64,000 bases of DNA from Candidatus Micrarchaeota archaeon (GCA_964490215.1 CAZBAM010000003.1:1489-65488), one strand, 5' to 3'. Numbered from the stretch's first letter, positions 45,069 through 62,372 are shown. A program made the numbers and translations. Notes: generated by a model not told the origin, from the letters alone.

Positions 45069-46373
45069 TCAGCCCAGCGCGACGTTCTTCACTCTTATAT
45101 GCGGCCCGCCGTCGCTCACAGGCACGCTCTGCCCGTTCTTGCCGCACATGCCAGGGCTGCCCCCGAAATCCTTTCCAACGCATTCAACGTCAAGGAGCGT
45201 CTGGAGTATGTTCCCGCTTATGGTGGTGTCCCGCACCAGCGCGGTTTTCTCGCCGCGCTTTATCAGCCAGGCCTGCTCGGCCCTGAACATGAAGCCGCCG
45301 GAGAAGGTGTCCACGCTGCCGCCTTTCATGCCCTTGAGATAGACGCCGTCCCGCACGCCGAAGACGTCGTCCGGCGACGCGTCGCCAGGCTGGAAATAGG
45401 TGTTGCTCATGCGGACTATGGGGACGGACCCGTATCCCTCTGCCCTGGCGTGGCCGTTGGGCTCGTGGCAGAGCGCCTTTGCCGTCTCCCTGGAATTGAT
45501 GAAGCCCCTGAGCACCCCGTGCTCCACGAGCACGGTCTTCCGCGCCCTTACGCCCTCGTCGTCATAGGCGTAGTTCCCGAAATCGTCCGCAGACGGGTCG
45601 TCTGCTATGCTGACCATGTCGTTTCCTATGGCCTTTCCAAGCCTGCCTGCAAGGATGGACTCCTTGTCCAGCACAGCGTCAGCCTCGCACGCGTGCCCGA
45701 CCGCCTCGTGGGAGAACACGCCTGTCATTTCAGGGTCCATGACCACCGTGAACCTGCCCCTGGGCGGCGGCGCAGCCTTGAGCAGGCCGAGCGCCTTGTC
45801 CCTTGCCTCGCCGGCCACGTCCATGTTGAGCCTGCCGAAGCCCTTGCGCGACCACGAACGCGACATCCCGCGCTGGATGAGGCTTCCGGAGCGCGCGGTG
45901 CACGCGCACGAAAGGTACGTGAATCCGGTTTCCTGGATTATCTCAGCGCCTTCCGAGCTGTAAAACTCCTGCACCGTGCGGCTGTCCGTGCACGAGAGCG
46001 TGCGCGCTGCGACGTTTTTCGCCTTCATACCCCTGCCGGCGTCCAGCAGCGCCTTCACCTGCGCCTCGCTGTCGCCCTGGGGCGGCCTGTCAGTTATGTG
46101 TTTCTTCTCCGGTGCTGGAACCGCCAGCGCTATCCCGCCCTTTCCCAGCAGCGCAAGCCGTTTCGCCCGCTGGAGCAGGATTTCCGGCGCCTCGCCGCGG
46201 TTGCTGGACGCGAAGCCCCAGGAGCCGTTCTCCAGCACGCGCACGCCCATCCCCACCTGCGAGCCTGAGGCGTGCCTGACCTCGTCGTTGGTTATCTGCA
46301 CCCAGGACTCCGTGCCCCGCTCTATGCGTACGTCAGCGTATCCGTATCCGGACAGGATCCTGTGGAATTCCAT
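45069..46373 (-). CDS. tldD: TldD/PmbA-family metalloprotease (TldD type)
   Basis: GMGVRVL.NGSWGFAS, FSHEAVGHACEAD (HExxxH), YDDEGV, PIVRMSNTYF, SDGGPH. Confidence 0.9.
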   Translation of the reverse strand: MEFHRILSGYGYADVRIERGTESWVQITNDEVRHASGSQVGMGVRVLENGSWGFASSNRGEAPEILLQRAKRLALLGKGGIALAVPAPEKKHITDRPPQGDSEAQVKALLDAGRGMKAKNVAARTLSCTDSRTVQEFYSSEGAEIIQETGFTYLSCACTARSGSLIQRGMSRSWSRKGFGRLNMDVAGEARDKALGLLKAAPPPRGRFTVVMDPEMTGVFSHEAVGHACEADAVLDKESILAGRLGKAIGNDMVSIADDPSADDFGNYAYDDEGVRARKTVLVEHGVLRGFINSRETAKALCHEPNGHARAEGYGSVPIVRMSNTYFQPGDASPDDVFGVRDGVYLKGMKGGSVDTFSGGFMFRAEQAWLIKRGEKTALVRDTTISGNILQTLLDVECVGKDFGGSPGMCGKNGQSVPVSDGGPHIRVKNVALG

Positions 46374-46697
46374 CTAAAGCAGCCGCCTGGCCTTCTCGGC
46401 ATATTCCAGGACGAGCCTCTTCTCCTCCTTCGTCCTTACCATGCCGCAGAATACGTGGCTGCCTACCGGTACCATGACGAGGACCGCGCTCTCAAACGCG
46501 AGTTCAATCTGCTTCTGCCTGTCCTCCATCTTCTTCATGAGGGCGTCGGACACGTTGCAGACCGAGGCGATGAGGCCCGGGCTCACCTCGTTGAGCGCCA
46601 GGGTGGAATGCACCGGAACGCCGTCCACCCGGACCAGCGCCCCTCCTATCCCCCTGCCCTTCATGTCGTTCAGGAGCGCTTCTATTTCAGTATGCAT
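46374..46697 (-). CDS. Roadblock/LC7 (MglB-like) domain protein
   Basis: GGALVRVDGVPVHST, helix, then beta-hairpin LVMVPVGSHVFCGMV; start ATG 46697. Confidence 0.65.
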   Translation of the reverse strand: MHTEIEALLNDMKGRGIGGALVRVDGVPVHSTLALNEVSPGLIASVCNVSDALMKKMEDRQKQIELAFESAVLVMVPVGSHVFCGMVRTKEEKRLVLEYAEKARRLL

Positions 46698-47019: not shown

Positions 47020-47420
47020 AGGTCCTTCTGGATACGGCCGCCCTCATTGACCTCCTGAAAGGCGAGAAGAACGCAATGGCAAGGGCCGAGGAGCTGAAGA
47101 AGGAAGCCGCCCTCTACACGACCACAATCAACATCTACGAGATTCTGAGGGGCATCAACCTCCTTCCGCCAAAAAGCAAAGAGCGGCATATCCAGGCATT
47201 ACGGGTCCTCATCAGCAACCTCAACCTCCTGGGCATAGACGCGGACGCTGCCGCCGCTGCGGCTTCCGTGTATGCGGAGTTGCGAAAAAAAGGGACTGAA
47301 ATAGACCCTCCGGACTACCTGATTGCCGGCGCCTGCATTGCAAACGGCATCGGCCTCATCCTCACAAGAAACGAAAAGCACTTCGGGAGGATAAGCGGGC
47401 TGAAGGCGGTCACGTACTAG
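46998..47420 (+). CDS. vapC: VapC PIN-domain toxin (start ATG 46998 or CTG 47016)
   Basis: VLLDTAALID, INIYEI, DYLIAG, TRNEKHF. Confidence 0.9.
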   Translation: MERGGFLKVLLDTAALIDLLKGEKNAMARAEELKKEAALYTTTINIYEILRGINLLPPKSKERHIQALRVLISNLNLLGIDADAAAAAASVYAELRKKGTEIDPPDYLIAGACIANGIGLILTRNEKHFGRISGLKAVTY

Positions 47421-48124
47421 ATTATGGCCAGCCCGGCCGGGCCGACCTTCAGTGGTATCAGGATGTCCACATCCGGCACCCTCAGGAAGAACTTCCCGCC
47501 AGCGTCCGATATGGTGCATATCCCGTCCGCGCCCTGCTCCAGTGTGCTCAGCAGCTGCTTGTCGTGGACGCCTTCGTCTATGAGGTAGATGGTCGTCCCG
47601 TTGGCGGTCCTGAGCCTCCCCTCTATGACGCTTAGGAATTTCCTTATGGACTCCTTGGGATTATAGAGCACGAACGTGGAGAGGGTGTCAAAGACCACCC
47701 GCATCCGCTTGCCTGCGCTCACCTTCATGGCCTCGTTGAGCATGAGCGAGATGTCGTTGAGCGCGCCCGGGCCTGAGACCATCATGACCTTCGGGCTGCT
47801 CTCCACCGGCCTTCCCAGCGTGGCGCTGTAGCAGTCTATGAAAAAGACGTTCGGCTTTTCCAGGCTTATGCCCAGCGTTGCCGCCTTTTTTATTACGTCC
47901 GCGGGCGAGGAGTTGCCACAGAGTATGTACGCGTTCTCGCCGGTTCCCGCCGCACCGGCGAAATGGTACGCGAGCGCAGCCTTCTCCATCCCGCTGGGCC
48001 CGACTATGATGATGTTGCCTGGATTGACGAACCCGCCCTCCAGTATCAGGTCCAGGTCCGCGATGCCGGTGCAAAGCCTGTTCTTCCTGAGAATAGGCGT
48101 CTGCTCGTTCACTCCCAGGTCCAT
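47417..48124 (-). CDS. KaiC/RAD55-like RecA-superfamily ATPase with degenerate Walker A
   Basis: TGIADLD..LEGG, GPSGMEKA, FIDCYS, VVFDTLST; start ATG 48124. Confidence 0.85.
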   Translation of the reverse strand: MDLGVNEQTPILRKNRLCTGIADLDLILEGGFVNPGNIIIVGPSGMEKAALAYHFAGAAGTGENAYILCGNSSPADVIKKAATLGISLEKPNVFFIDCYSATLGRPVESSPKVMMVSGPGALNDISLMLNEAMKVSAGKRMRVVFDTLSTFVLYNPKESIRKFLSVIEGRLRTANGTTIYLIDEGVHDKQLLSTLEQGADGICTISDAGGKFFLRVPDVDILIPLKVGPAGLAII

Positions 48125-48222
48125 GGCAGTAATGGCGTTGGAAGTTTTATAAAGGTCTGCGTTCCCCCAGGCTGCCGCCCAAGGGTAAAACTGGCAGGAA
48201 AAAGAAGGGCGCTGTAAACAAG

Positions 48223-48334
48223 CCCAAGCGCCTTGCCGGGCTATTCTTATTCTTGCCTTCGGGACGCCCTTTGGGCACAGGACCCACCATCCCTTCGGGA
48301 TGGTTCCCCCGTGCCAGTTCCTGGAGGCATTTCT
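48223..48334 (+). repeat. Dispersed structured repeat, copy A
   Basis: Blocks GCGCCTTGCCGGGCTA.TCTTAT / GACGCCCTTTGGGCACAGGACC / CACC-ATCCCTTCGGGAT-GGTTCCCCCGTGCC / TGGAGG shared with copies B-D. Confidence 0.9.
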
Positions 48335-48390
48335 TGTGGAAAAAGAGCATGGAAAAAAGAAGAGGAAAAAAGAAGAAAACCGAGGGGAAC

Positions 48391-48774
48391 TCAGCAGAAT
48401 GTGGTTGCCGATATGCTTGATGCACCGCCGCCTGCCATGAGCGCGTTTATGATTATCGGCGTCAGCACGTATATGAGCGCGCCGATTATCGCGCCGGTCA
48501 TCATGGCAGTCGCCCACACAGTCGCCCTTGCCCTGGTTTCTGCACCAAGCACCTGGCCGATCGCGTAAGTCGCACCAGCAAGCAGTATCATTATCATGAT
48601 TGCGCCGCCGAGGAACACCCTGGACGCGTCACAGAGCCCCCTGAGGGCCGAAGATATGCCCGTGGCTGCATCAGCTGTAGCAAACGACACTGAGAGCAGG
48701 TTGACGGCAAATACCGCCACTATCAGGTATTTCCCCCAGGTGTTCGCCTTTCGCATAAAATCAACGATATCCAT
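48391..48774 (-). CDS. TrbC/VirB2-like pilin, copy 1
   Basis: Signal ending VSFA, two hydrophobic helices separated by GAETRARA, paired Cys. Confidence 0.7.
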   Translation of the reverse strand: MDIVDFMRKANTWGKYLIVAVFAVNLLSVSFATADAATGISSALRGLCDASRVFLGGAIMIMILLAGATYAIGQVLGAETRARATVWATAMMTGAIIGALIYVLTPIIINALMAGGGASSISATTFC

Positions 48775-48929
48775 CCGTTCACCTTTGATTGGTTTTGAGG
48801 GCTATATGAAAGTGAATATTTAAAAAGGATAATCCGGCCGCGAAAAATGGGTGAAACGGGGAAAAAGAAGATGAAAAAAGGGCACGGAAAAAAAGAAGAG
48901 GAAAAAAGAAGAAGGGCGCTGTAAAACCA

Positions 48930-49168
48930 CTCAGGCGCCTTGCCTGGTTAGTCTTATTTTTAACTTCTAGACGCCCTTTGGGCGCAGGACCGGATGATGT
49001 CAGGACCGACGCTTCGATCTTGAGCATGTTCATGAACGTTGCGACGTTCATGACAACGACGCTTCGTTCGCTGGTCCACAGAACGGTGCGCCGTTCTGCC
49101 GGACCCACCGTCTGCGGACGGTTCCCCCGTGCCGATTCTTGGAGGTATCTCCTATGGGATTCTACAAA
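48930..49168 (+). repeat. Dispersed structured repeat, copy B (with 114-nt hairpin insert)
   Basis: Same conserved blocks; insert 48992-49105 flanked by GGACC. Confidence 0.9.
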
Positions 49169-49197
49169 TCCAAAAAAAGAAGAAAACGGAGGGGAAA

Positions 49198-49578
49198 TCA
49201 GCAGAAGTTGGTCGCCTGTATGCTCCCGGCGCCTCCTCCTCCAAGGAGCGCGTTTATGACTATCGGCGTCAGCATGTATATGAGCGCGCCGATTATCGCG
49301 CCGGTCAGCATCGCCGTGGCCCACACGGTCGCCCTTGCCCTGGTCTCCGCCCCGAGAATCTGGCCGATGGCGTAAGTCGCACCAGCAAGCAGTATCATTA
49401 TCATGATTGAGCCGCCGAGGAACACCCTGGACGCATCACAGAGCCCCCTGAGGGCCGACGATATGCCAGTAGCTGCCGTGCCTGCAAACGACACTGCGAG
49501 CAGATTGACGGCAAACACCGCAACTATCAGGTATTTCCCCCAGGTGTTCGCCTTTCGCATCAAATCAACAATATCCAT
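49198..49578 (-). CDS. TrbC/VirB2-like pilin, copy 2
   Basis: Near-identical paralog of 48391-48774; same upstream TTTTTAAATA box. Confidence 0.7.
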   Translation of the reverse strand: MDIVDLMRKANTWGKYLIVAVFAVNLLAVSFAGTAATGISSALRGLCDASRVFLGGSIMIMILLAGATYAIGQILGAETRARATVWATAMLTGAIIGALIYMLTPIVINALLGGGGAGSIQATNFC

Positions 49579-49651
49579 CTGTTCACCTTCGGCTGGTTGT
49601 GGGGATTAAGTGGGAGTCAATATTTAAAAACATTCAGCCGAGAGTAAGCGC

Positions 49652-51151
49652 ATGGATTTTCTCCAGCGGCTGCTGAAAAGTGACCGCAGGGTCCTGTTCA
49701 TCCTGATATGCGCCTACCTCGTCACACACCTTGCGGTGCTCCAGTTCCTGCCATTCGTGCGCGACGAGGCCATATACGCGGTGATGGTGACGGAGCAGGC
49801 CGATTCCCCGTCGCTCATCCCGACGTTTTTCGGCTATCCGGTGAGTTGGAAGCCAGCCCCTTTCTTCTGGCTCTACGTGCCGTTCTCAAAGCTGCTTTCC
49901 GGCTTCCTTCCGCTTGAGGTCGTTTATCGCCTCCCATCGCTTCTTTTCGGGCTTGCGACGGTCCCGCCGCTCTACCTGCTGCTGCGTAACGCGGGCGTCA
50001 GCCGCGCCCTGGCGTTCTGCTCCCTGCTCATATTCACCTTTTCCTACGTTTCGCTCTACCCACAGACGGCCATGCTTGCCGATTCCCCGGCGTTCTTCTT
50101 CATATGCGCGTCGCTCTGGCTCTACACCGAAAAGCGCCTCCCGGCGTGGCGCTTCCTTGCCGCAGGCGTGCTTGCGTTCGCTGCTTTCTTCATAAAGATA
50201 GTGCTCGCGTTCATGGTCCCGGTGCTCGCCGTTGCGTGGTTCTGTGCCGGCCGGAAGGAAACGCTCCGCAACCCGCTCTTCCTCGCCTCGCTGGCTGCCG
50301 TTCCGGTCGCGCTGGCGCTGCACGCCGCGCTGCTGCAGGGCGCAGGCCTGCTCGGCGAGTCCTATGCCAGCAACGTAGTAAACCACTTCATGAGTCCGGC
50401 TGGCGTTGAGGGCCAGTTCGGGGTGGTCCTGGGCTCCCTCATGATGTTCATCTCGTCCTGCGGCATCTGGTTCCTGCTATCGCTTTTCGGCTTCTGGAAA
50501 AACTGGCGGAGCCAGCCGTTCATGGCTGCGTGGTACGCACTGCTCGTGTTCCCTGTCCTCACAGGCTTCTTCATGCCGTGGTACTACCTGCCGGTGATGC
50601 CAGCGGTGGCTTATTTCGCCGCGCTGGCCGTGCTGAAATGGGAAGGCGTGGAGAAGGCGGACCTGTTCTTCGTCATCTTCCTGTCGCTCGCCCTGGCTGC
50701 CACCGTGGTCCTGCTCTGCGCCGGCTATGTATTCACGCGGAACGACTTCCTCCCTGAAAAGGAGGCCGGCCTGATGCTTGCCGGGAAGGAGAACGTGCTC
50801 ATCGCCGGCGACTACGCGCCGGGCGTGTTCGCCTACAAGATGCTGACCGAGCGCCGGGAGCTCGGCCGCAGCCTGGATTTCGGCCTCGTGGTTTTCCCGC
50901 GGAACACGTCCAACGGGACCGTGGCCCAGTTCCTCAGCGACTACTATTCGGCATCCGCGCCGGTCGTCCAGGGGTCGTTCAGCCCGCTTTTCTCGCTCAA
51001 TGCCATTTTCAGGAAGGACACCAGCATAGCGGGATTCGGCTGCGTGGCGCTCGTCGGCCGCTACAGCGTGGTCCCGCCCGGCGCAGAAATACTCTATAAC
51101 CGCTCCTACGTAGTAATATACCGTCCCACCCCCGGGCTGTTGACGAAGTGA
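49652..51151 (+). CDS. GT-C fold membrane glycosyltransferase (ArnT/PMT-like)
   Basis: RDEAIYA, KPAPFFW, YRLPSLLFG; many TM helices. Confidence 0.85.
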   Translation: MDFLQRLLKSDRRVLFILICAYLVTHLAVLQFLPFVRDEAIYAVMVTEQADSPSLIPTFFGYPVSWKPAPFFWLYVPFSKLLSGFLPLEVVYRLPSLLFGLATVPPLYLLLRNAGVSRALAFCSLLIFTFSYVSLYPQTAMLADSPAFFFICASLWLYTEKRLPAWRFLAAGVLAFAAFFIKIVLAFMVPVLAVAWFCAGRKETLRNPLFLASLAAVPVALALHAALLQGAGLLGESYASNVVNHFMSPAGVEGQFGVVLGSLMMFISSCGIWFLLSLFGFWKNWRSQPFMAAWYALLVFPVLTGFFMPWYYLPVMPAVAYFAALAVLKWEGVEKADLFFVIFLSLALAATVVLLCAGYVFTRNDFLPEKEAGLMLAGKENVLIAGDYAPGVFAYKMLTERRELGRSLDFGLVVFPRNTSNGTVAQFLSDYYSASAPVVQGSFSPLFSLNAIFRKDTSIAGFGCVALVGRYSVVPPGAEILYNRSYVVIYRPTPGLLTK

Positions 51152-51155
51152 CCGC

Positions 51156-51827
51156 ATGATTTCCGTGATAATCCCAACCTACAACGAGCGCGGCAACGTG
51201 GAACTGCTGGTTCCCAGGCTGGCTGCGCTCCTGCCGCAGGGCAGCGAGATAGTAGTGGTGGACGACAATTCGCCCGACGGCACGGCCGCAGTGGTGGAGG
51301 CGATGTCAGCGAAATTTCCAACGGTCCGGCTCGTCAGGCGCGAAAGGAAGGCTGGCCTTACATCCGCGGTCGTCGCAGGCGTTTCCGCAGCTAAGGGCGA
51401 CTTGATAATCGTGATGGACGGGGACCTTTCCCATCCGCCCGGGGCTGTGCCGCTGCTGGCTTCCGCGCTGAAGGGCTGCGACCTTGCGGTGGGCAGCAGG
51501 CTGGCCGAAGGCGGCAGGGTGGAGAGCTGGCCGCTTCACAGGAAGCTGATATCACGTGGTGCAGAACTGCTCGCCCGCGTCCTCCTGGGCGTGAAGCTGT
51601 CGGATCCGATGAGCGGATTTTTCGCGATCCGCAAGGGCGTCTTCATGAAAACAAGGTTCAGGGCCAGGGGCTACAAGATTCTCCTGAACATACTCGCTGA
51701 CAATCCGCGCATCAGGGTGAGGGAAATCCCGTACGTCTTCAGCGACCGGCATTCAGGCAGGACCAAGCTGGGCGCTGCTGAGATGGCGACCTACGTATCC
51801 GACCTCATACGCCTGCGGTTCTCCTGA
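51156..51827 (+). CDS. GT2 polyprenol-phosphate glycosyltransferase (DPM1-like)
   Basis: ISVIIPTYNE, VVDDNSPDGT, MDGDLSHPP, DPMSGFF, GYKILL, DRHSGRTKL. Confidence 0.93.
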   Translation: MISVIIPTYNERGNVELLVPRLAALLPQGSEIVVVDDNSPDGTAAVVEAMSAKFPTVRLVRRERKAGLTSAVVAGVSAAKGDLIIVMDGDLSHPPGAVPLLASALKGCDLAVGSRLAEGGRVESWPLHRKLISRGAELLARVLLGVKLSDPMSGFFAIRKGVFMKTRFRARGYKILLNILADNPRIRVREIPYVFSDRHSGRTKLGAAEMATYVSDLIRLRFS

Positions 51828-51958
51828 CCGGAAGCGGGAAACCCTAAACCGGAAACGGGTGGAAACGAGCGGAGAGGCGTGGAAAGGAGCGGAAACGGGC
51901 AGAAACCGGCGGGAACTGGAAACCTGAAACGGAAAACGGGAAACCGGAAGCGGCATAC
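51828..51958. repeat. Purine-rich degenerate tandem spacer (GGAAAC(G/C)GG-like units)
   Basis: Roughly a dozen imperfect GGAAAC units between two glycosylation genes. Confidence 0.65.
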
Positions 51959-52082
51959 CCGCGAATCGCGTTCCGGCAATGGCTTTCGTGAACTACACAC
52001 AGCTGAAGCCGTCTTCTTGTGCTCCGCTCAGGATGGATTTCCCGGGCCTACCTCATTTAAAGTTACGCCCTCCATCCTTTCC

Positions 52083-53951
52083 ATGGAAGTTCTCGGTGTG
52101 CCCGGCCGGCCGTTCCTGCTGAACGCGGCCATTACCCTCCTCCTGACCGTGGCCATATTCTACCCTGCGCTGGCCTCGTTCGGCCAGGTGCTTCTGGGGG
52201 CCGAGGACATCCGGCTTTTCCTGTGGCTCTTCTGGCATTTCAGCAACAGCCTAAACAACGGCACCAACCCGTTTTATGCAGGCGAGATATTCCATCCCTA
52301 CGGGATTTCCCTTTCCATGACCACCCTGTCCCCGCTCCAGGCCATCGCCTACTGGCTGCTTCCTGCGTCGTTCGGCCCTTTCGGGAAGATAACGCTCCTG
52401 CAGGCGCTTTCATTCGTCCTCGGCGGAATCTTCGCCTTCTGCCTCGCGTACAGGTTCGCGAAATCCTTCCTGCCTTCCTTTTTGGGCTCGGCGCTGTTCA
52501 ACTTCTCGGTGTATCATTCGGAAAAAGCCCTCCACCACCTCAACTACAGCATGGCGTTCCCGTTCCTCGCGCTCTTCTTCCTGTGCTATTTCGCCGCCGC
52601 GGAGCGCAGGAAGCACGGCATCCTGCTCCTGTCCGCCTCGCTCCTGCTGCTCGCACTCAACGAGATGACCGTCGCAGTGATGGCCGGCTTCGTGGTTTTC
52701 CTGGACGTGTTCCGGCACTATCTCGCCCGCTCGCGCGTGAAGCTCCTCACAACACGCAATGCCGCCATCCTGGGCGGGGCCGTGGTGCTGTCAATGGCAG
52801 CCAACGAAGCCCTCGCCACCCTGGCAGCCCCCCAGCTCCTGCTTTACACGCTCCCCCCGCTCCCGTTTCTTGCCGCATGCCTGGCCGTGCTCGGGCCGGC
52901 GAATGCGGTCGCGGCAGAGAAAGCCGAAGGCAGGCTGCGGTCGCTCGTCCTCGCATCGCTGCCGGTCGCCGCCTACACAGTCCTGCTGGCCCTCCAGCCC
53001 TCCTATGCCATAAGCCATGACAACGCGATATCCAACTCGCTGTTCTACGCAGTGCCGGTGGAATACCTCGTAATCCCTTCTGATTTCCAGGCAGTGGCCC
53101 ACGCAGGGGTTTTCAGCGGCCTCCAGGCCGGCAGCGAGGCCGGCGTCTATGCTGCCGCAGGCCTGCTCCTTCTGGTGCTTTCCCTGGTCATTCCCGGCGC
53201 ATCGCGGGACGAGGAATATTTCAGGAACCTTTCCCTGCTCTGCCTGCTCTTTTCGTTCCCCATAATCTCAGAAGGCGGGCTCACGCTTCTGACGGTCCTT
53301 CCCCAGCCCCTTTTTCCCCTTCTCGGCGTGCTGCGGGTGCCGGTCCGCTTCATGGTGTTTTCACTGCTTTTCCTTTCGCTCGCCTCGGCCCTGCTCGCGG
53401 TGCGCCTGCTCAGCTTCAGGCACGGCAGGGCGCTGGTGGCCGGGCTGTCAGTCCTCGTGCTGGCGGTCCAGTGGCCTGCCATGGGCGGCTTCACCTTTGA
53501 CGGAAGCGTGCCTGCGTTCTATTCCGGCCTGGCAGGCACGACAGGCCTGACCGGCATGACAGGTATGACAGGCATGACCGGCATAGAAAAGAAGGTCTTC
53601 CTATACCCGGACATGGACTACTATTCGCTGCTCAACGAGGTGTATTACCAGACCGTGCACGGCAACAGCCTGTCCGCAGGCATCGTCTCCCGCCAGCCTT
53701 TGTCAGGCAATCCGCTCTATTCGCTGTATTCGTCCCCGAACGTTTCGCGCAGCGACGCGCTGGCCGTGGCGAAGTCCCTGGGATACGACTACGTGGTGTT
53801 CCACAAGACGGCTTGCTCAAACTCCAGCGGATGCTTCCGCGGAATATTCGTGCAGGACCAGGCGCTCATGGACGCCCTGGCGAGGGAAAAGCCGCCGGGC
53901 GCGAAGGTGTACGAAGACGATTCCATCGTCGTCTATGCGTGCTGCTCATGA
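52083..53951 (+). CDS. Multi-pass membrane protein, probable GT-C glycosyltransferase
   Basis: EDIRLFLWLFW, IFHPYGISL, LRVPVRF; about 12 TM helices; GMT tandem repeat near C-terminus. Confidence 0.7.
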   Translation: MEVLGVPGRPFLLNAAITLLLTVAIFYPALASFGQVLLGAEDIRLFLWLFWHFSNSLNNGTNPFYAGEIFHPYGISLSMTTLSPLQAIAYWLLPASFGPFGKITLLQALSFVLGGIFAFCLAYRFAKSFLPSFLGSALFNFSVYHSEKALHHLNYSMAFPFLALFFLCYFAAAERRKHGILLLSASLLLLALNEMTVAVMAGFVVFLDVFRHYLARSRVKLLTTRNAAILGGAVVLSMAANEALATLAAPQLLLYTLPPLPFLAACLAVLGPANAVAAEKAEGRLRSLVLASLPVAAYTVLLALQPSYAISHDNAISNSLFYAVPVEYLVIPSDFQAVAHAGVFSGLQAGSEAGVYAAAGLLLLVLSLVIPGASRDEEYFRNLSLLCLLFSFPIISEGGLTLLTVLPQPLFPLLGVLRVPVRFMVFSLLFLSLASALLAVRLLSFRHGRALVAGLSVLVLAVQWPAMGGFTFDGSVPAFYSGLAGTTGLTGMTGMTGMTGIEKKVFLYPDMDYYSLLNEVYYQTVHGNSLSAGIVSRQPLSGNPLYSLYSSPNVSRSDALAVAKSLGYDYVVFHKTACSNSSGCFRGIFVQDQALMDALAREKPPGAKVYEDDSIVVYACCS

Positions 53952-54110
53952 TGCGTGCTGCCCCTGGCGCACAACCATGGAGCCCCTGTCCCGGGCCTTC
54001 TGGAGCGCCCGGGCGTTCGGGATGGAGGCGGGGATCATGGCTGTTGCGCGCCCGTCGGACGCCCGCGGGTTCAGGACGTTTTTAAACTGCTTCCACACTT
54101 AAAATCCGCT

Positions 54111-55544
54111 ATGAGAGTCGCGCTTGTCAGCCCTCCACCAATAGCAGGCACCAGGTATACGCGGGAGGGCCGCTGCCAGGAGAAAGAGGCAGTCCTCGGC
54201 GCGGTCAAGCCGCCACTCACCCTGCTTTACCTGGCCAGCATACTGCGCAAGGCCGGCCACGAGGTCCTGTTCCTGGACGCCAACGCGAAGCGGATGGGTG
54301 CGGCAGAAATGCAGGCGCGGCTCGCACGGTTCGGCCCGGCAGTTGTGATGTTCGCCACGTCCACGCCTACAATCGCGGACGACATGGCAGCCATGAAGGA
54401 TTCGCCCGGCATCGTATTCGCATTCGGCCCGCACGTGAAGGTGCTGCACGCGGACGTGCTCAGGGAATACGGCTTCCTGCGCGGCGTCGTCACTGGCGAG
54501 CCGGAAGCTGTCGCCGGGCCGCTCTGCGACGCGCTGGCGAAAGGCAGGGGCCTGGGCCGCGTCCGTGGCATCGCCTACCGGGCCGGCAGGGATGGCGACG
54601 GACGCCTCAGGCTGACGAAACCGTCCGTGGTGTCCGACATAAATTCACTTCCGGCGCCTGCCCTTGACCTGCTGGACTTCGGCGATTACAGGCTGCCGAA
54701 CAACGGCGAGCCGTTCTCCGTGGTGGAGATTTCGCGCGGCTGCCAGTTCAGCTGCGCGTTCTGCATCGTGCCGGTGCTGCGGCCAGGCTTCAGGGTTGCG
54801 GAAAAATCGCCGAAGGCAATCGTGGACGAGATGGAGCGCACGAAAAACTCGTACGGGGTGCGGTATTTCTACCTCCTGCGGGACTCCACGATGAAGTCCG
54901 GCGACCGGCAGATAAGCGGGATTGCCGGCGAGCTCATCCGGCGGAAGCTGGGCGTAAGGTGGATGACGAACACCCGCATTGACGCCGTGTGCGCGAAGGC
55001 GCTGAAAAAGATGAAGCAGTCCGGCTGCTGGCTCCTGGCCGCCGGCATAGAGGCTGAGGACGACGACGCGCTGTCCGCCGTCCGCAAGGGCTTCAGGCAC
55101 GGCATCGTCGCCGGGAACGTGGCGAAAATAAGGAAGAGCGGAATCAGCCTGCTCCTGTTCTTCATATTCGGTTTCGCCGACGACACGCCGGAGCGGATGC
55201 GGCGCAGGGCCGAATACGCCGCAGGCCTTGACGCTGACTTCGCGAACTTCTACCCGCTCGTGCCCTATCCGGGAACCCGCGTCTTCAGCCAATTCGTCCG
55301 GTCGGCCGGCAGGAATCCGGAATGGGAAAAATGCGACTACTCGCACTACGCCCTTTCAGCCCAGACCGGCCTGGCTGAGGCTGCGGTCCTTTCAGCGGTT
55401 TCTGACGCGTACCTGAAATTCTACGCGAAGCCCGGAAGGCTCGCGCGGCTCATGATGAAACTCCGGGAAGGGGATTGGCGCCTGATTCCGCTGCTTTCCA
55501 GCGGCGTGAGGTTCGCGTGGCGCGTCCTTGCCCGCGCCCCCTGA
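54111..55544 (+). CDS. B12-binding radical SAM protein
   Basis: PPLTLLYLAS.L, FGPH, GEPE, SRGCQFSCAFC (CxxxCxxC), GIE, PYPGT; start ATG 54111. Confidence 0.9.
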   Translation: MRVALVSPPPIAGTRYTREGRCQEKEAVLGAVKPPLTLLYLASILRKAGHEVLFLDANAKRMGAAEMQARLARFGPAVVMFATSTPTIADDMAAMKDSPGIVFAFGPHVKVLHADVLREYGFLRGVVTGEPEAVAGPLCDALAKGRGLGRVRGIAYRAGRDGDGRLRLTKPSVVSDINSLPAPALDLLDFGDYRLPNNGEPFSVVEISRGCQFSCAFCIVPVLRPGFRVAEKSPKAIVDEMERTKNSYGVRYFYLLRDSTMKSGDRQISGIAGELIRRKLGVRWMTNTRIDAVCAKALKKMKQSGCWLLAAGIEAEDDDALSAVRKGFRHGIVAGNVAKIRKSGISLLLFFIFGFADDTPERMRRRAEYAAGLDADFANFYPLVPYPGTRVFSQFVRSAGRNPEWEKCDYSHYALSAQTGLAEAAVLSAVSDAYLKFYAKPGRLARLMMKLREGDWRLIPLLSSGVRFAWRVLARAP

Positions 55545-55680
55545 CGACTGTGATGACGAGGCTGCGATTACGAGGCTGTGATGGATGCTGAAGAGGCTGT
55601 AATGCTGAGACTGCGATGACAAGACTGCGATGATGTGATAATAAGGCGTGCCGATGAGGCTGTGATGTCGAGGTTGTGAT
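55545..55680. repeat. Degenerate tandem spacer ((G)AGGCTGTGATG-like units)
   Basis: About ten imperfect 11-13-nt units between radical SAM gene and next gene. Confidence 0.7.
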
Positions 55681-57733
55681 GATGAAGCGCCTGCACCTGA
55701 TGCTGGCCGGGCTGGTCCTGCTGGCTGCATTGTTTTTTGCGCTGGCATCCATGTCCCTCCAGGTCCCCGCTCTCTTCCGCATCTCGTTCGGCACCCCGGA
55801 ATTCACCGAATCCGGCTTTGCGCAGGTCCTCTTCTTCGTGCTCCTGGCCGCCGGCGCATTTTTCACTGGCCGGGCTGCCATCCTGCTCCTGCTTCCAGGA
55901 AAGCACGAGGCAAAGCACGACAACAGCAGAGAATGCGATGCAAAGCACGACGGAAAGCACGACGCAAAGTACGATGCAACGCACGACGGAACGCACGACC
56001 GGATGGTCTTCCCGGCATCGGTCTTCCTGGGGTTCGGCATCGCAGGCTTCATTGCCATGCTGTCCGGCCTCGCCGGCCAATTCACTCTCGCCCTGCCGCT
56101 GTTCGGCGTCATCGCTGCAGCGTCGCTGCTCTTCCTTCTCAGGAAAAACGCGCTGGCCGCTGAGCTGCCTGCCATGCCCCTGGCCCTGGCGGCCGGGATG
56201 CTCGCGCTCTCCGCGTTGCTTGCCGCCGCCTTCCCCATCCTGTCCCCTGACGCGTGGTTCTACCACGCGGAAATGAGCAGGATACTGTTCCAGGAGCACG
56301 CGTTCCCGCAGATTGCCGGCACAGGCCTCGGCCTCGGCATCTCCTCCAACTACCCGCCGCTGTTCCCTTCGCTGGGCGCGCTCGCACTGCCGCCCGCGGG
56401 TGCGTCCAGCGGCGCGTCCAGCGGCCCGCCCGGCGATTCGTTCAACGACTTCGGCCTGCGGCTCGTTTCCCGGTTCATCGCGCTGTTCCTCGCGCTCCCG
56501 CTTTTCATCCTCTCAAAAAAGCTCTTCAGGGAAAACGCCACTGCGCTTTTCTTTTTCTTCTGGGCGCTGGCGAACCTCTTCATCGTAATCAACGCCAGCA
56601 GCTGCTACCCGCTGCTTTTCGCCTTCTTCGTGCTGTCCTTCCATTACTGGCTCGCTTTCCTTGAAAGCAAAAGCCCCGGCGCGCTCGCGCTGTCCTCGCT
56701 GTTTTTCGGCTTCTCCCTCCTGTGCTCCTACCTCGCCCTGGCGTTAGCCCCTGTCTTCCTGGTCTTCTGGCTTTCGGAAAACAAATACCGGCTGGCCGGC
56801 TGGCGCGCCCCCTGCGCCTTCTTCCTCATCGCCTTGCTCCTGTTCAGCCCCTGGGCGGTGCGGACCTTCCTGCTGACCGGCGACCCCATCTACCCTGCCA
56901 TCGCCTCGCTTTTCGCAAAACCCGGGTCGCCGCTCCATGTCACCGTGGAGCACCTGGCCGTTTCCACGCTCGGCAGCGGCATCGTGAGCCGCATGCAGTT
57001 CTTTTTCACGATACTCCCGTTCCCCCTGTTCGGTGCCGCAGCCCTGCTGTTCTCCATCCGTGCCGCCTGGAAGGCGCGGCCGGGCCTGCGGGAAAGCCTC
57101 ACCGGGCTGCTTTCCGGCCCCTACGCCCTGTGGTTCCTCTATCCGCTCCCCCTGCTCCTCATACCCTCGTTCGTTTCCCCCAAGTATGCTGTGCTCCTCC
57201 TGCTGCCAGCAGCCCATCTGACAGCGCGGGCATTCGGCTCGCTTAGGAACAGCCCGCAGCTGTCCTTCGCGTTCAGGTTCATGTGCATGGCAGTCGTTCT
57301 CATAGCAACCCTCGCGTTCTTGCTCCCTGTCCACTGCCTCTTCTGCGGCTACGAGGCCGTGAGGATGGTTCCACACGGCAACGGCATGGCAGACTTTTTC
57401 GTGGCCGCGAATTCCCTGCAGGGCCGCATCGCAGCCTTTGACATGCCGACATACTACCTCTCCGAAGGGCGCCAGAAGATAATCGCGATTGACGAGGGCG
57501 CAATCTTCAGCCGGCTGGCTGCCGCTGATTCCAACCAGGCGCAGGCCTGCATCCTCAAACAGGCCGGTGCGGACTACGTCCTGCTGCCGCTCGGGCTGAT
57601 GCCGCAGGAGCAGTTCGCCATCCAGCTTTTCCAGAACCTCTCCAACCCGAAGCTGGTCCCGGTGATGGGGTTCCACGGCCCCTGGCAGAACGCCAGCCAG
57701 CTGACACTTTACAGGATATCCGGCTGCGGTTAG
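55676..57733 (+). CDS. GT-C-like membrane glycosyltransferase with KHD tandem insertion
   Basis: DAWFYH, NYPPLFP, GDPIYP; many TM helices. Confidence 0.75.
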   Translation: MMMKRLHLMLAGLVLLAALFFALASMSLQVPALFRISFGTPEFTESGFAQVLFFVLLAAGAFFTGRAAILLLLPGKHEAKHDNSRECDAKHDGKHDAKYDATHDGTHDRMVFPASVFLGFGIAGFIAMLSGLAGQFTLALPLFGVIAAASLLFLLRKNALAAELPAMPLALAAGMLALSALLAAAFPILSPDAWFYHAEMSRILFQEHAFPQIAGTGLGLGISSNYPPLFPSLGALALPPAGASSGASSGPPGDSFNDFGLRLVSRFIALFLALPLFILSKKLFRENATALFFFFWALANLFIVINASSCYPLLFAFFVLSFHYWLAFLESKSPGALALSSLFFGFSLLCSYLALALAPVFLVFWLSENKYRLAGWRAPCAFFLIALLLFSPWAVRTFLLTGDPIYPAIASLFAKPGSPLHVTVEHLAVSTLGSGIVSRMQFFFTILPFPLFGAAALLFSIRAAWKARPGLRESLTGLLSGPYALWFLYPLPLLLIPSFVSPKYAVLLLLPAAHLTARAFGSLRNSPQLSFAFRFMCMAVVLIATLAFLLPVHCLFCGYEAVRMVPHGNGMADFFVAANSLQGRIAAFDMPTYYLSEGRQKIIAIDEGAIFSRLAAADSNQAQACILKQAGADYVLLPLGLMPQEQFAIQLFQNLSNPKLVPVMGFHGPWQNASQLTLYRISGCG

Positions 57734-57920
57734 CCGGCTCTGCAGGAAAGCTCAGGCGCCTTGCCGGGCTAGTCTTATTTCTGGCCTTCCGGTGACTGCG
57801 GTCACCAGCTGTCGCGCTGCTGCGCAACATAGGACGCCCTTTGGGCACTGGACCCACCGTCTGCGGACGGTCCCCCCGTGCCGGTTCATGGAGGTATTTA
57901 TCAGGGATTCCTGCAAAGTC
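57731..57920 (+). repeat. Dispersed structured repeat, copy C (with ~45-nt hairpin insert)
   Basis: Begins at the TAG stop of the upstream gene; same blocks; insert GGTGAC-TGCG-GTCACC. Confidence 0.9.
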
Positions 57921-57963
57921 CCGAATCGCAAGCGCTTTTATTTTGTCGGGCATACTGTTTTGC

Positions 57964-59688
57964 ATGAACCCGGACCCTCGCATGCAGCCGGACATAAGTA
58001 TGCCTCCGGAACCCGGCATGCACCTGGACAGCCGTATGCCCCCGGAACCCCGCGTGCGCCCGGAAACCGGCACGCACCCGAACCACCCAGCGCAGGCTTT
58101 CCTTCCGGTCAAACTCCCTTCTTTACCTACCCTCGTTTTTTACGGCGTCGTGCTTCTCCTCCTCATCCAGCTCGTTTCAGGCTACGCCGCCTTTCTCAAT
58201 TACCTCTACTCCAATTCCGGCACCCTCCTCTGGAAGGCTTACGACTGGCCTGATACCGCGGTGATGGTCCAGAGCGTCATGGACGGCCGGTTCTTCTCCG
58301 GATACCCTGAAGCGTTCATCTCAGGCAAATCCATGTTCGGGCTGTTCCCTCCGCTCCTGCCGCTGCTGGCCGGCGTCATAAACCTGGCAACAGGCAACAT
58401 CGCCATCACATTCGTCCTGCTTTCGGCAGTCCTTTCGCTGCTTATCTCATATTTTACAGCGAAAGACTGGCCAGCGTGGCCCCAGAAGCTGATTGTAGTC
58501 CTGTTCCTGTTCTGCTATCCCATCGTCGGCGACGTCCCTCCGTTTATCGTCCGGCTTAGGGAGCTGTTCGCTGTCTTCTTGCTCGTCCTGCTTTTCAAAA
58601 ACCCTTTCCGCATGAAGCCTGAGAAGAACTACCTCGTCCTCGGCCTGTTATTAATCCTCTCGCAGCCGCTGGTGGCTTTGATAGGCCTGCTTTCGTATCC
58701 ATTCCTGAATCCGGAAAACTGGAAGATGAAGGCGGACCTGCGCTCTTTCGCCGTCTTCGCGGCCCTGGCGCTGGCATTCACGGCCACCTACCACCAGCAC
58801 ATCCTCCTGAACCTGCCTGGCGGTGCAGCAAACACCAACTCGCTGGGGCAGTGCCTGCCGAAAGCATATGGAATCCCGCTGGACGCCATGCTCACACTCT
58901 TCAGCGTCCCGGCGCTTTTCTTTTTCGTTTTCTCCAGGAACAACCTCGTAAGGGGCGCATTGCTCCTTTTCACGCTGTGGTGGTTCTCCCTCATCGTCTT
59001 CTCGGAAAATACCGGCCTGCTCTCCCTGCTGGCGTTTCCGGTGAAGGATGATTTCATATTCCAGACGCTCCCGTTCTTCGCGTTTTTCGCCCTGTTCCCG
59101 CCGCCCGGAAAACCGAAGGACGGCAACACGAAGCATCTTTTGGCAATCCTCCTTGTCCTGGCGCTTTTACTGGCCAACATGAAAATAGGGGCCCCGCTCA
59201 ATTCAGCAGGAGCAGAAGAAACGCAGTTCCGGAACATAGCCGGCTCGCTCCAAAACCACTCAAAAATCCTGTCCATGACTTTCTACGCGGTAGAGTCAAA
59301 ACGCGCATTCTTTTTCAGCGGGTCAGACTTCCGGCTGATTTCCGAAATCTTTTTGAAGAAACTGCCCGTCCAGGCTTATTACTCCCCGTTCCAGTCCTTC
59401 TACGATACAGAGGGGCTCTACGCGCCGGTTTCAGGCCTGATCGGTTCAATCAACGAAAAGAACCGTTCCGCATGCGTGTCATTCGCCGGCAACCTCTCCC
59501 GGAAAACCGATTACCTGCACCTTGGCCTGAGCGTCATCCACAACGGCGACCGGGGCTGGTCCGGCCGGGCTTTGGCAAACCTCGCCGACCGTGGTTTCCT
59601 TGAAGAATGCGGCATCAGCCTCGTGGCAGACGAGTCCGGAAACGGCACTGACAAGGTGCAAATCCTCTACCGGTTCAGAACAACCTGA
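57964..59688 (+). CDS. Multi-pass membrane protein, possible GT-C family, with N-terminal 6-aa repeats
   Basis: DWPD, LFPPLLP; TM-rich; MPPEP repeats; ATG 57964 lies after repeat C. Confidence 0.65.
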   Translation: MNPDPRMQPDISMPPEPGMHLDSRMPPEPRVRPETGTHPNHPAQAFLPVKLPSLPTLVFYGVVLLLLIQLVSGYAAFLNYLYSNSGTLLWKAYDWPDTAVMVQSVMDGRFFSGYPEAFISGKSMFGLFPPLLPLLAGVINLATGNIAITFVLLSAVLSLLISYFTAKDWPAWPQKLIVVLFLFCYPIVGDVPPFIVRLRELFAVFLLVLLFKNPFRMKPEKNYLVLGLLLILSQPLVALIGLLSYPFLNPENWKMKADLRSFAVFAALALAFTATYHQHILLNLPGGAANTNSLGQCLPKAYGIPLDAMLTLFSVPALFFFVFSRNNLVRGALLLFTLWWFSLIVFSENTGLLSLLAFPVKDDFIFQTLPFFAFFALFPPPGKPKDGNTKHLLAILLVLALLLANMKIGAPLNSAGAEETQFRNIAGSLQNHSKILSMTFYAVESKRAFFFSGSDFRLISEIFLKKLPVQAYYSPFQSFYDTEGLYAPVSGLIGSINEKNRSACVSFAGNLSRKTDYLHLGLSVIHNGDRGWSGRALANLADRGFLEECGISLVADESGNGTDKVQILYRFRTT

Positions 59689-62223: not shown

Positions 62224-62372
62224 CTTTGTAGGACTCCCCTGAGAAATACCTCCATGAACCGGCACGGGGGGACCATCCCGAAGGGATGGTGGGTCCTGTG
62301 CCCAAAGGGCGTCTATGGGTCAAATATAAGACTAGCCCGGCACGGCGCCTGGGCTTTCCAGAGAGCCGGCTA
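62224..62372 (-). repeat. Dispersed structured repeat, copy D (inverted)
   Basis: Reverse complement matches copies A and C across all blocks. Confidence 0.9.

Follow-up and report, generated by a model that had tools for sequence, protein, structure and literature searches.

Probable conjugative-type pilins and a candidate pseudo-ATPase regulator encoded at a Micrarchaeota locus

Results

A duplicated gene for a small hairpin protein with predicted export

We analyzed a 64,000-nucleotide stretch of DNA from Candidatus Micrarchaeota archaeon (GCA_964490215.1 CAZBAM010000003.1:1489-65488), referred to below as the window, in which two tandem genes encode small proteins predicted to be exported and to form a membrane hairpin. 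The two proteins are probably conjugative-type pilins, and a KaiC-like protein encoded next to them is a candidate pseudo-ATPase regulator. From sequence comparisons we give about an even chance to the explanation that the hairpin proteins are pilin-like subunits for a Ced/type IV secretion system (T4SS)-like apparatus of the phylum, with the pseudo-ATPase as their candidate regulator. The two hairpin genes are:

48391-48774, minus strand: hairpin (VirB2-like) protein copy 1, open reading frame (ORF) of 127 aa
49198-49578, minus strand: hairpin (VirB2-like) protein copy 2, ORF of 126 aa

Pairwise alignment of the two products gave 88% identity with 1 gap, the greatest divergence lying in the C-terminal tail, and a ratio of nonsynonymous to synonymous substitutions (dN/dS) of 0.21 (Nei-Gojobori) indicates that both copies are under purifying selection. 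An earlier note on this DNA had described near-identical paralogs of about 127 aa; the paralogy holds for these ORFs, although at 88% identity the copies are merely close. In the family tree, copies 1 and 2 are sister rows (support 100/89), and in the maximum-likelihood analysis the tandem copies of three other loci (L004, L025, and L030) are likewise sisters within each locus, indicating that the duplications were recent and independent and that the window pair represents a recent, lineage-specific duplication of a single orthogroup.

In copy 1, a leader (residues 1-36) precedes an amphipathic helix containing C48, a first transmembrane helix (TM1), the GAETRARA loop (residues 77-84), a second transmembrane helix (TM2) and a Ser/Thr-rich tail ending in C127. 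Of the terminal cysteine pair claimed in the earlier note, C127 does stand at the end, but the other cysteine, C48, belongs to the N-terminal amphipathic helix. The leaders of the window proteins measure about 32-36 aa and end in SFA/ADA. AlphaFold2 predicts a leader helix followed by a hairpin of two helices of about 37 residues each, and the model of the mature part contains helices H2-39 and H42-78 with a predicted local distance difference test score (pLDDT) of 84.

Searches with the window hairpin proteins returned 217 close homologs, all unnamed or annotated as 'hypothetical', and every source-named one comes from Micrarchaeota. A profile search of 1.8 billion representatives extended the hairpin family to 438 members. 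In species-representative genomes 232 family stretches were found, of which the best 77 were analyzed as family loci; all of these 77 are from Micrarchaeota. Often there are several loci per genome, with up to 7 copies within 20 kb. Among the searches made, the family thus appears to be multi-copy and to occur in Micrarchaeota alone. Its invariant or near-invariant positions are YAxGQ, GAETRARA, VWAT, the helix-2 proline and two cysteines; the GAETRARA loop is invariant across homolog alignments of 46 and 58 sequences, and the C-terminal cysteine is carried by 169 of 171 short tails.

Distant family members bear ordinary Sec signal peptides, and some relatives are extended at the C-terminus by Cys-rich, mucin-type or Hint domains or occur as tandem fusions. 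These Sec signals and extracellular-type extensions indicate that the two ends of the hairpin face the cell exterior and the basic loop the cytoplasm. Among the extended relatives, P0247 has a Hint/PT-HINT autoprocessing domain immediately after the tail cysteine, long Cys-rich C-terminal domains are present in P0183 (429 aa), P0235 (342 aa) and a 185-aa paralog at L008:11929-12486, and one member of the broad (A2) alignment carries a Mucin-2 WxxW domain. In two loci, genes for DsbA/thioredoxin-like proteins lie within 7 kb of family members (L086:11773-12402, about 1.4 kb away, and L004:1-1702), which would fit disulfide formation in exported hairpin proteins.

Pfam and NCBIfam yielded no family above noise for the window hairpin proteins. 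An ATP-synthase c-subunit-like proteolipid was ruled out, as there is no membrane carboxylate and a signal peptide is present, and a DPM2/DPM3-like anchor of the neighboring family 2 glycosyltransferase (GT2) was ruled out by topology, the cytoplasmic loop comprising only 7 residues.

Resemblance to TrbC/VirB2 pilins

The layout of VirB2/TrbC pilins, i.e., a leader, a pair of hydrophobic helices connected through a short basic loop, and both ends outside, is found in the hairpin proteins. Profile evidence comes from P0223, an unambiguous family member, which scores 28.8 bits with Pfam TrbC (cut-off 27.9) and 24.4 bits with T4SS_pilin (PF18895; cut-off 26.6). When 117 distant members were scanned at E≤0.01, TrbC matched 19 and T4SS_pilin 20 of them, all sub-threshold with respect to the curated cut-offs. 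T4SS_pilin is the sole or top Pfam match for P0183 and P0123, and NCBIfam TrwL matches one paralog at 7e-5. An hhalign alignment of the family with VirB2, which is not significant, is collinear, the family's conserved cysteine falling on the invariant cysteine of VirB2.

Conjugation-like machinery in the phylum

A CedB/VirB4-like ATPase was first seen 8.5 kb from family paralogs in one genome. Its family is highly conserved and comprises at least 120 clusters at 67-93% identity, of which the organism-named ones are nearly all from Micrarchaeota. In NCBIfam it scores best with CedD and CedB (2e-20) and VirB4/TraC (1e-16), ahead of HerA (1e-10). The ATPase of about 525 aa is encoded in a conserved operon with the order 2-TM protein (269 aa, with a soluble domain), ATPase, Zn-ribbon/TM protein, coiled-coil winged helix-turn-helix protein and a membrane protein of about 850 aa. 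According to these searches, the operon is widespread in Micrarchaeota and usually unlinked to hairpin genes. It was located at L087:9181-15390, L088:7907-14762 and L008:15918-21290; in L088, the C-terminal part of the ATPase, about 100 aa, is encoded as a separate 98-aa gene.

Family members such as P0168 and P0228 consist of two hairpin modules fused to a polytopic domain of about 330 aa, which recalls CedA/VirB6, whose N-terminus is reported to be pilin-like (Beltran et al., 2023; PMC9905601). The fusion proteins are encoded in an operon for six polytopic membrane paralogs, one of the six carrying the two hairpin modules at its N-terminus; the paralogs share the motif LRxFPPTRxAG and a C-terminal GGxIExAGLTRLI. 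The six-paralog operon is found at L006:8733-16356 and also in L005, L007 and at L072:15678-17650, with proteins of 363-529 aa. For the polytopic paralogs, Pfam, NCBIfam and the PDB gave nothing usable, and hhalign of the hairpin family against them gave a Prob of 1.1%.

In four loci (L072, L067, L085, and L078), genes for three small membrane proteins (clusters c89-c91) lie downstream of family members. Next to these, L067 and L072 encode a membrane-anchored double AAA+ ATPase, and L072 contains the polytopic array as well. Neither for c89-c91 nor for the 269-aa, 686-aa and 845/853-aa partners of the ATPase was anything usable obtained from Pfam, NCBIfam or the PDB.

A KaiC-like protein with a degenerate active site

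Downstream of the hairpin genes lies a KaiC-like/Roadblock-like/TldD gene set, and upstream of them, in divergent orientation, glycosyltransferase genes:

45069-46373, minus strand: TldD/PmbA-family protein, 434 aa, abutting the Roadblock-like gene
46374-46697, minus strand: Roadblock/LC7-like protein, about 107 aa
46780-47420, plus strand: VapB/VapC (PIN) toxin-antitoxin pair (Pfam)
47417-48124, minus strand: single-domain KaiC-like protein, 235 aa (Pfam KaiC and DUF7504)
48145-48153, minus strand: box TTTATAAAA of the KaiC-like gene
49652-51827, plus strand: PMT-like glycosyltransferase of fold class C (GT-C, 499 aa) and DPM1-like GT2 (223 aa; Pfam), divergent from hairpin copy 2

The KaiC-like protein starts with MDLGVNEQ, as do all its orthologs; an ORF of 366 aa for this gene is an artefact of upstream over-extension when judged by the ortholog alignment. 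Pfam KaiC (PF06745) matches at 50.4 bits (cut-off 26.6, E=2.5e-13), DUF7504 (4.6e-13) and DUF7090 match as well, and KaiC structures do so down to 1.9e-10. In place of the canonical Walker A motif GxxxxGK[ST], GPSGMEKA is encoded at 47978-48001, with Gly-to-Glu and Thr/Ser-to-Ala replacements. The earlier note had called the ATPase degenerate on account of this motif, which is borne out; in addition, the catalytic EE of KaiC is replaced by GN (CGNSSP aligned to FEE of KaiC), the Walker B Asp being retained. In 34 KaiC-like orthologs, GPxGxEK[A/S/I] and the loss of the catalytic Glu are conserved. These ortholog-wide changes of P-loop and catalytic Glu indicate that the protein is at most a nucleotide binder and probably a pseudo-ATPase.

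The Roadblock-like protein matches Pfam Robl_LC7 (PF03259) below the cut-off (E=0.07, 13.3 bits; cut-off 23), and its ortholog profile matches PDB 3l7h (8.6e-3) and LC7 proteins (about 0.03) near full-length, which is weak but consistent. Relatives always have the Roadblock-like gene as a neighbor of the KaiC-like gene, and these two and TldD are closely spaced, with overlapping or abutting ends. In the window, the KaiC-like gene is separated from the Roadblock-like gene by vapBC, whereas the two adjoin or overlap in all relatives examined; the toxin-antitoxin pair was apparently inserted recently, splitting the operon. The genes vapC and the KaiC-like gene are convergent and their stop codons overlap.

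The 30 nt before the KaiC-like ATG (48125-48154), including TTTATAAAA, are 100% identical in L004:8461-8490 and L012:7582-7611. The spacer between hairpin and KaiC-like genes is otherwise without detectable similarity among those genomes, so that the 30-nt stretch has the appearance of a strongly constrained promoter or 5' leader.

Synteny of the window orthogroup

Hairpin copies located beside the KaiC-like gene and/or glycosyltransferases form one clade of 34 rows in the maximum-likelihood tree (support 95/75). We named this orthogroup, to which the window copies belong, KG for its flanking KaiC-like operon and glycosyltransferases. In KG synteny, GT2 and PMT-like GT-C genes are divergent from the hairpin gene(s), which are followed by the KaiC-like, Roadblock-like and TldD genes; the order with these latter three is found in 34 loci. 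Neighbors were counted in the 41 family loci flanked on either side by 4 kb or more. A KaiC-like gene lies within 3 kb in 20 of them, 14 having the KaiC-like gene together with GT-C; glycosyltransferases only are present in 6, and neither neighbor in 15. GT-C/GT2 genes adjoin family members in 19 of the 41, including the 6 without a KaiC-like gene. In the window, the GT-C-like (PMT, PMT_2) and DPM1-like GT2 genes, the latter protein lacking membrane helices, belong to a 10-kb plus-strand run (49652-59688) that also encodes a B12-binding radical SAM enzyme.

Evidence against a pilin function and alternative explanations

Several results weigh against assigning the hairpin proteins to a conjugation-type apparatus. 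The window proteins themselves gave nothing at E≤0.1 with the TrbC and T4SS_pilin models, and their best Pfam matches are noise (e.g., Yip1 and Cyt_bd_II). In the scan of distant members, unrelated multi-pass families matched equally often (Yip1 26, Cyt_bd_II 23). The hhalign alignment with VirB2 was not significant (Prob 1.4%, P=0.036), and a local VirB2 hidden Markov model found nothing. PDB profile searches with the close (A1) and broad (A2) alignments returned no pilin and only chance proteasome matches, and Foldseek searches of the PDB with full-length and mature models had no conjugative pilin in the top 41-50 (all E>1), although such profile and fold tests have low power for a shape as generic as a two-helix hairpin. 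Regarding the machinery, no VirB4, VirB6, HerA or polytopic-array gene is present in the window, the polytopic paralogs do not match VirB6/TrbL models, and the paralogs heading the machine-type loci fall in a different clade from the window orthogroup. The CedB/VirB4-like ATPase lies within 10 kb of a family member in two genomes only among the 77 loci, in both cases 8-10 kb apart with housekeeping genes in between. Finally, hairpin and KaiC-like genes have separate promoters and the entire neighborhood is syntenic, so that their adjacency may be inertia, and a search for RNA-seq runs containing the locus found none, only DNA runs (≤16% of sampled words).

The comparison with VirB2 and CedA1 structures that the earlier note had proposed, made here by Foldseek, hhalign and PDB profiles, therefore gave no pilin, and of its VirB2/TrbC-like assignment the architecture was upheld but not the fold and profile matches. 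Solved CedA1 and TedC chains also showed no sequence similarity to the hairpin proteins in the PDB profile searches. Components of Ced and Ted are without recognizable mutual sequence similarity though both systems are T4SS derivatives (Beltran et al., 2023; PMC9905601), and therefore weak similarity is to be expected between true relatives and a negative sequence result weighs little.

The link between the KaiC-like operon and the hairpin genes, for which adjacency is the evidence, has to be considered close to even. The contrary view, that the KaiC-like/Roadblock-like/TldD operon is unrelated to the hairpin proteins and that adjacency reflects inherited gene order in a conserved block, is a serious one, to which we give somewhat less than an even chance. 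It agrees with the separate promoters and the terminator-like tract in between, with the synteny of the entire block from NFACT and the glycosyltransferases through CarAB, and with the 15 of 41 well-flanked family loci that have neither neighbor. In several distant genomes the KaiC-like gene is 3-8 kb from the nearest family member, and in the window the VapBC insertion has already parted it from the Roadblock-like gene. On the other hand, adjacency is still seen where the hairpin protein is down to about 40-45% identity with the window copy and in several deeply branching parts of the tree, and KaiC-like and Roadblock proteins recur beside archaeal surface-filament loci (Makarova et al., 2016; PMC4858521).

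A second alternative, to which we give a lower but still substantial chance, is that the hairpin proteins are resident, non-filament components of membrane or envelope whose VirB2-like layout is convergent. They might anchor or scaffold surface domains or the surface layer (S-layer), or be a small subunit or a substrate of the neighboring dolichyl-phosphate (Dol-P)-sugar/GT-C glycosylation machinery. Most family copies do stand alone amid housekeeping genes, the GT-C/GT2 association is kept in the 6 loci without a KaiC-like gene, and in relatives the hairpin serves as the N-terminal module of proteins with a large extracellular domain, either Cys-rich, mucin-type or Hint. The cytoplasmic loop shows extreme conservation, an uncommon trait in pilins, and every fold and profile test against solved pilins was negative. 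Against this stand P0223, which is above the TrbC threshold, and the many full-length, sub-threshold matches to two independent VirB2-type models, as well as the hairpin-polytopic fusions and the clusters that combine family members with polytopic arrays and an AAA+ ATPase. Also, one TM helix would suffice for a plain anchor and, to our knowledge, no glycosylation subunit combines a cleaved signal peptide with a hairpin that has both ends outside.

A viral or mobile origin, with the hairpin proteins as spindle-virus-type hairpin capsid proteins, holins or bacteriocin/immunity peptides, is very improbable: small two-TM proteins do occur in tandem arrays here and one paralog has a faint His1_capsid match (E=0.019), but the genes are core, syntenic, vertically inherited phylum-wide and under purifying selection, no integrase or other viral gene is nearby, and Foldseek searches of viral structures gave nothing at E<0.8. 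Weakest of all is the proposal of archaeal type IV pilins (class III signal, PibD/FlaK cleavage) with the KaiC-like protein as an ArlH-type partner, which could appeal to KaiC-like and Roadblock genes being typical of archaeal type IV pilus loci (PMC4858521) and to a weak Pfam Tad/Flp match (E=0.09), and which sequence effectively refutes, since the cleavage motif ([KR][GA] followed by a hydrophobic stretch) is missing, in agreement with the earlier note, distant members bear ordinary Sec signal peptides, the mature part folds into a two-helix hairpin in the model, not into a single helix with a beta domain, and no ArlI/PilB or ArlJ/PilC was found among the ORFs scanned.

Discussion

Comparison with known systems

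Assignment of the hairpin family as pilin-like subunits can be judged against three kinds of known systems. With the TrbC/VirB2 pilins (PF04956; T-pilin VirB2, R388 TrwL), the hairpin proteins share a long leader cut by signal peptidase I (predicted here), a mature part of about 70-90 aa with an amphipathic helix and two hydrophobic helices that a short basic loop connects, and one family member that passes the Pfam TrbC cut-off. In contrast to those pilins, the window proteins are without a significant profile or fold match, in the Micrarchaeota family the GAETRARA-VWAT loop does not vary and two extracellular cysteines are conserved, its neighbors are glycosyltransferases and the KaiC-like/Roadblock-like operon rather than virB genes, and the host is an archaeon. 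Tandem or arrayed chromosomal paralogs in an ultra-small symbiont are known from the T4SS_pilin (PF18895) arrays of Patescibacteria, where a sizable minority of the pilin genes are likewise not located near virB4 (bioRxiv 10.1101/2025.01.22.634366).

Like CedA1 of Sulfolobales and Aeropyrum and TedC of Thermoproteales, which are archaeal, chromosomal and conjugation-derived (PMC9905601), the proposed pilins are encoded on an archaeal chromosome and would be derived from conjugation systems. TedC, too, carries a signal peptidase I signal (PMC9905601). A CedB/CedD-like ATPase is present in the Micrarchaeota phylum, and hairpin-polytopic fusions there resemble CedA/VirB6 with its pilin-like N-terminus (PMC9905601). 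Unlike in Ced and Ted, there is no sequence similarity to the solved CedA1 and TedC chains, the motor is an ATPase of about 525 aa encoded after a separate 2-TM protein and with other partners, the pilin-like genes are dispersed and multi-copy, and a role in DNA import is conjectural here.

With regard to the neighboring operon, KaiC-family ATPases and Roadblock proteins are often encoded with archaeal pili (Makarova et al., 2016; PMC4858521), which is a precedent for a regulatory or adaptor role of the KaiC-like and Roadblock-like proteins. ArlH/FlaH (arCOG01171-01175) with Roadblock/LC7 (arCOG02603) (PMC4858521) offers the same combination of a single-domain RecA/KaiC fold beside a surface-filament-type gene and next to a Roadblock-like gene. 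The window KaiC-like protein differs from ArlH/FlaH in its ortholog-wide Walker A changes and the loss of the catalytic Glu pair, and from the KaiC proteins of archaeal pilus loci in that its partner is VirB2-like and not a type IV pilin and in that a solitary TldD gene follows. By analogy, the conserved loci would place the KaiC-like/Roadblock-like pair as a non-enzymatic cytoplasmic adaptor or regulator of a surface structure.

Proposed mechanism

We propose that the hairpin protein is synthesized as a precursor whose 32-36-aa leader directs it to Sec for export and is then removed by signal peptidase I. The mature protein of about 90 aa would then form a membrane hairpin in which an amphipathic N-terminal helix runs into TM1, the basic loop is cytoplasmic, and TM2 leads to a short Ser/Thr-rich tail. 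C48 and the C-terminal cysteine probably form a disulfide that staples both ends together or links neighboring subunits, and the exposed Ser/Thr-rich ends are plausible substrates for the adjacent GT-C/GT2 glycosylation genes. Such a pool of subunits may be used by the phylum's Ced/T4SS-like machine for a filament or for lining a channel, with the split CedB/VirB4-type ATPase operon and the polytopic array encoded away from the window locus, and the dead KaiC-like protein with its Roadblock-like partner would act on the cytoplasmic side. A bolder version, for which we see a slim chance, is a third, independently diverged archaeal conjugation-derived filament after Ced and Ted, built of disulfide-stapled, glycosylated subunits and serving as a conduit between cell and host, in which the passage of subunits out of the membrane and into the pilus would be gated by a ring of the dead KaiC-like protein and a Roadblock dimer docked on the GAETRARA loop or on the CedB-like motor (cf. 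ArlH on ArlI).

Implications for DPANN archaea

In DPANN archaea, pilus-like and tubular intercellular connections have been seen by microscopy. We know of no subunit identified for these connections so far, and how DPANN cells attach to and exchange with other cells is an open question, for which the hairpin family offers a concrete subunit candidate: it is phylum-wide, multi-copy and of pilin architecture, and it occurs alongside an equally widespread CedB-like motor. A testable candidate regulator is at hand in the conserved KaiC-like pseudo-ATPase and the Roadblock-like protein that accompanies it. If the pilin assignment is true, it would parallel the T4SS/VirB2-like arrays of Patescibacteria and would point to ultra-small symbionts of both domains having domesticated conjugation machinery convergently.

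In the literature searched, we found no paper on VirB2-like pilins or on a T4SS/Ced-like system in Micrarchaeota, and DPANN are not mentioned by Beltran et al. (PMC9905601). The window contributes the KG orthogroup, its phylum-wide pairing with the pseudo-ATPase KaiC-like/Roadblock-like/TldD operon and with GT-C/GT2 genes, the recurrent recent duplications, and a plain account of the homology tests that fail.

Promoter boxes, terminators and a dispersed repeat at the locus

Signals and repeats around the hairpin genes are as follows:

48816-48826, minus strand: TATA-like box TTTTTAAATAT of copy 1 (exact match)
49620-49630, minus strand: TATA-like box TTTTTAAATAT of copy 2 (exact match)
48779-48783: Shine-Dalgarno-like word GGTGA of copy 1
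49583-49587: Shine-Dalgarno-like word GGTGA of copy 2
48379-48395, minus strand: terminator-like small hairpin and T-run right after the copy 1 stop
about 49170-49197: T-rich tract 3' of copy 2, counterpart of the terminator-like element of copy 1
48199-48339, minus strand: copy A of the dispersed structured repeat, in the spacer separating hairpin copy 1 from the KaiC-like promoter
48906-49157, minus strand: copy B of the dispersed structured repeat, in the spacer separating hairpin copy 2 from the copy 1 promoter
about 57748-57899 and 62225-62356: further copies of the structured repeat

As the earlier note had claimed, a separate TTTTTAAATAT box precedes each hairpin gene. The window contains no further exact occurrence of it, and with one mismatch allowed 0.29 would be expected by chance.

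The same note had seen a duplicated unit of pilin and repeat. A repeat does follow each hairpin gene, but the idea of a unit is weakened because the repeat is dispersed, and its being part of a pilin-specific unit was ruled out by its four copies in the window, which occur in both orientations relative to local transcription. In relatives, the spacer that contains repeat copy A in the window is without the structured repeat. Rfam gave nothing for the whole window at gathering thresholds, nor for 48120-49200 at E≤1, and the window contains no tRNA genes. The repeat is about 115-140 nt long, with a 15-bp hairpin common to all copies and one compensatory pair. Copy B is interrupted by a 114-nt insert (48992-49105) and copy C by one of about 42 nt, in both cases at the same hot spot after GGGCGTC. 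The structured repeat resembles a miniature inverted-repeat transposable element (MITE) or a repetitive extragenic palindromic (REP) element.

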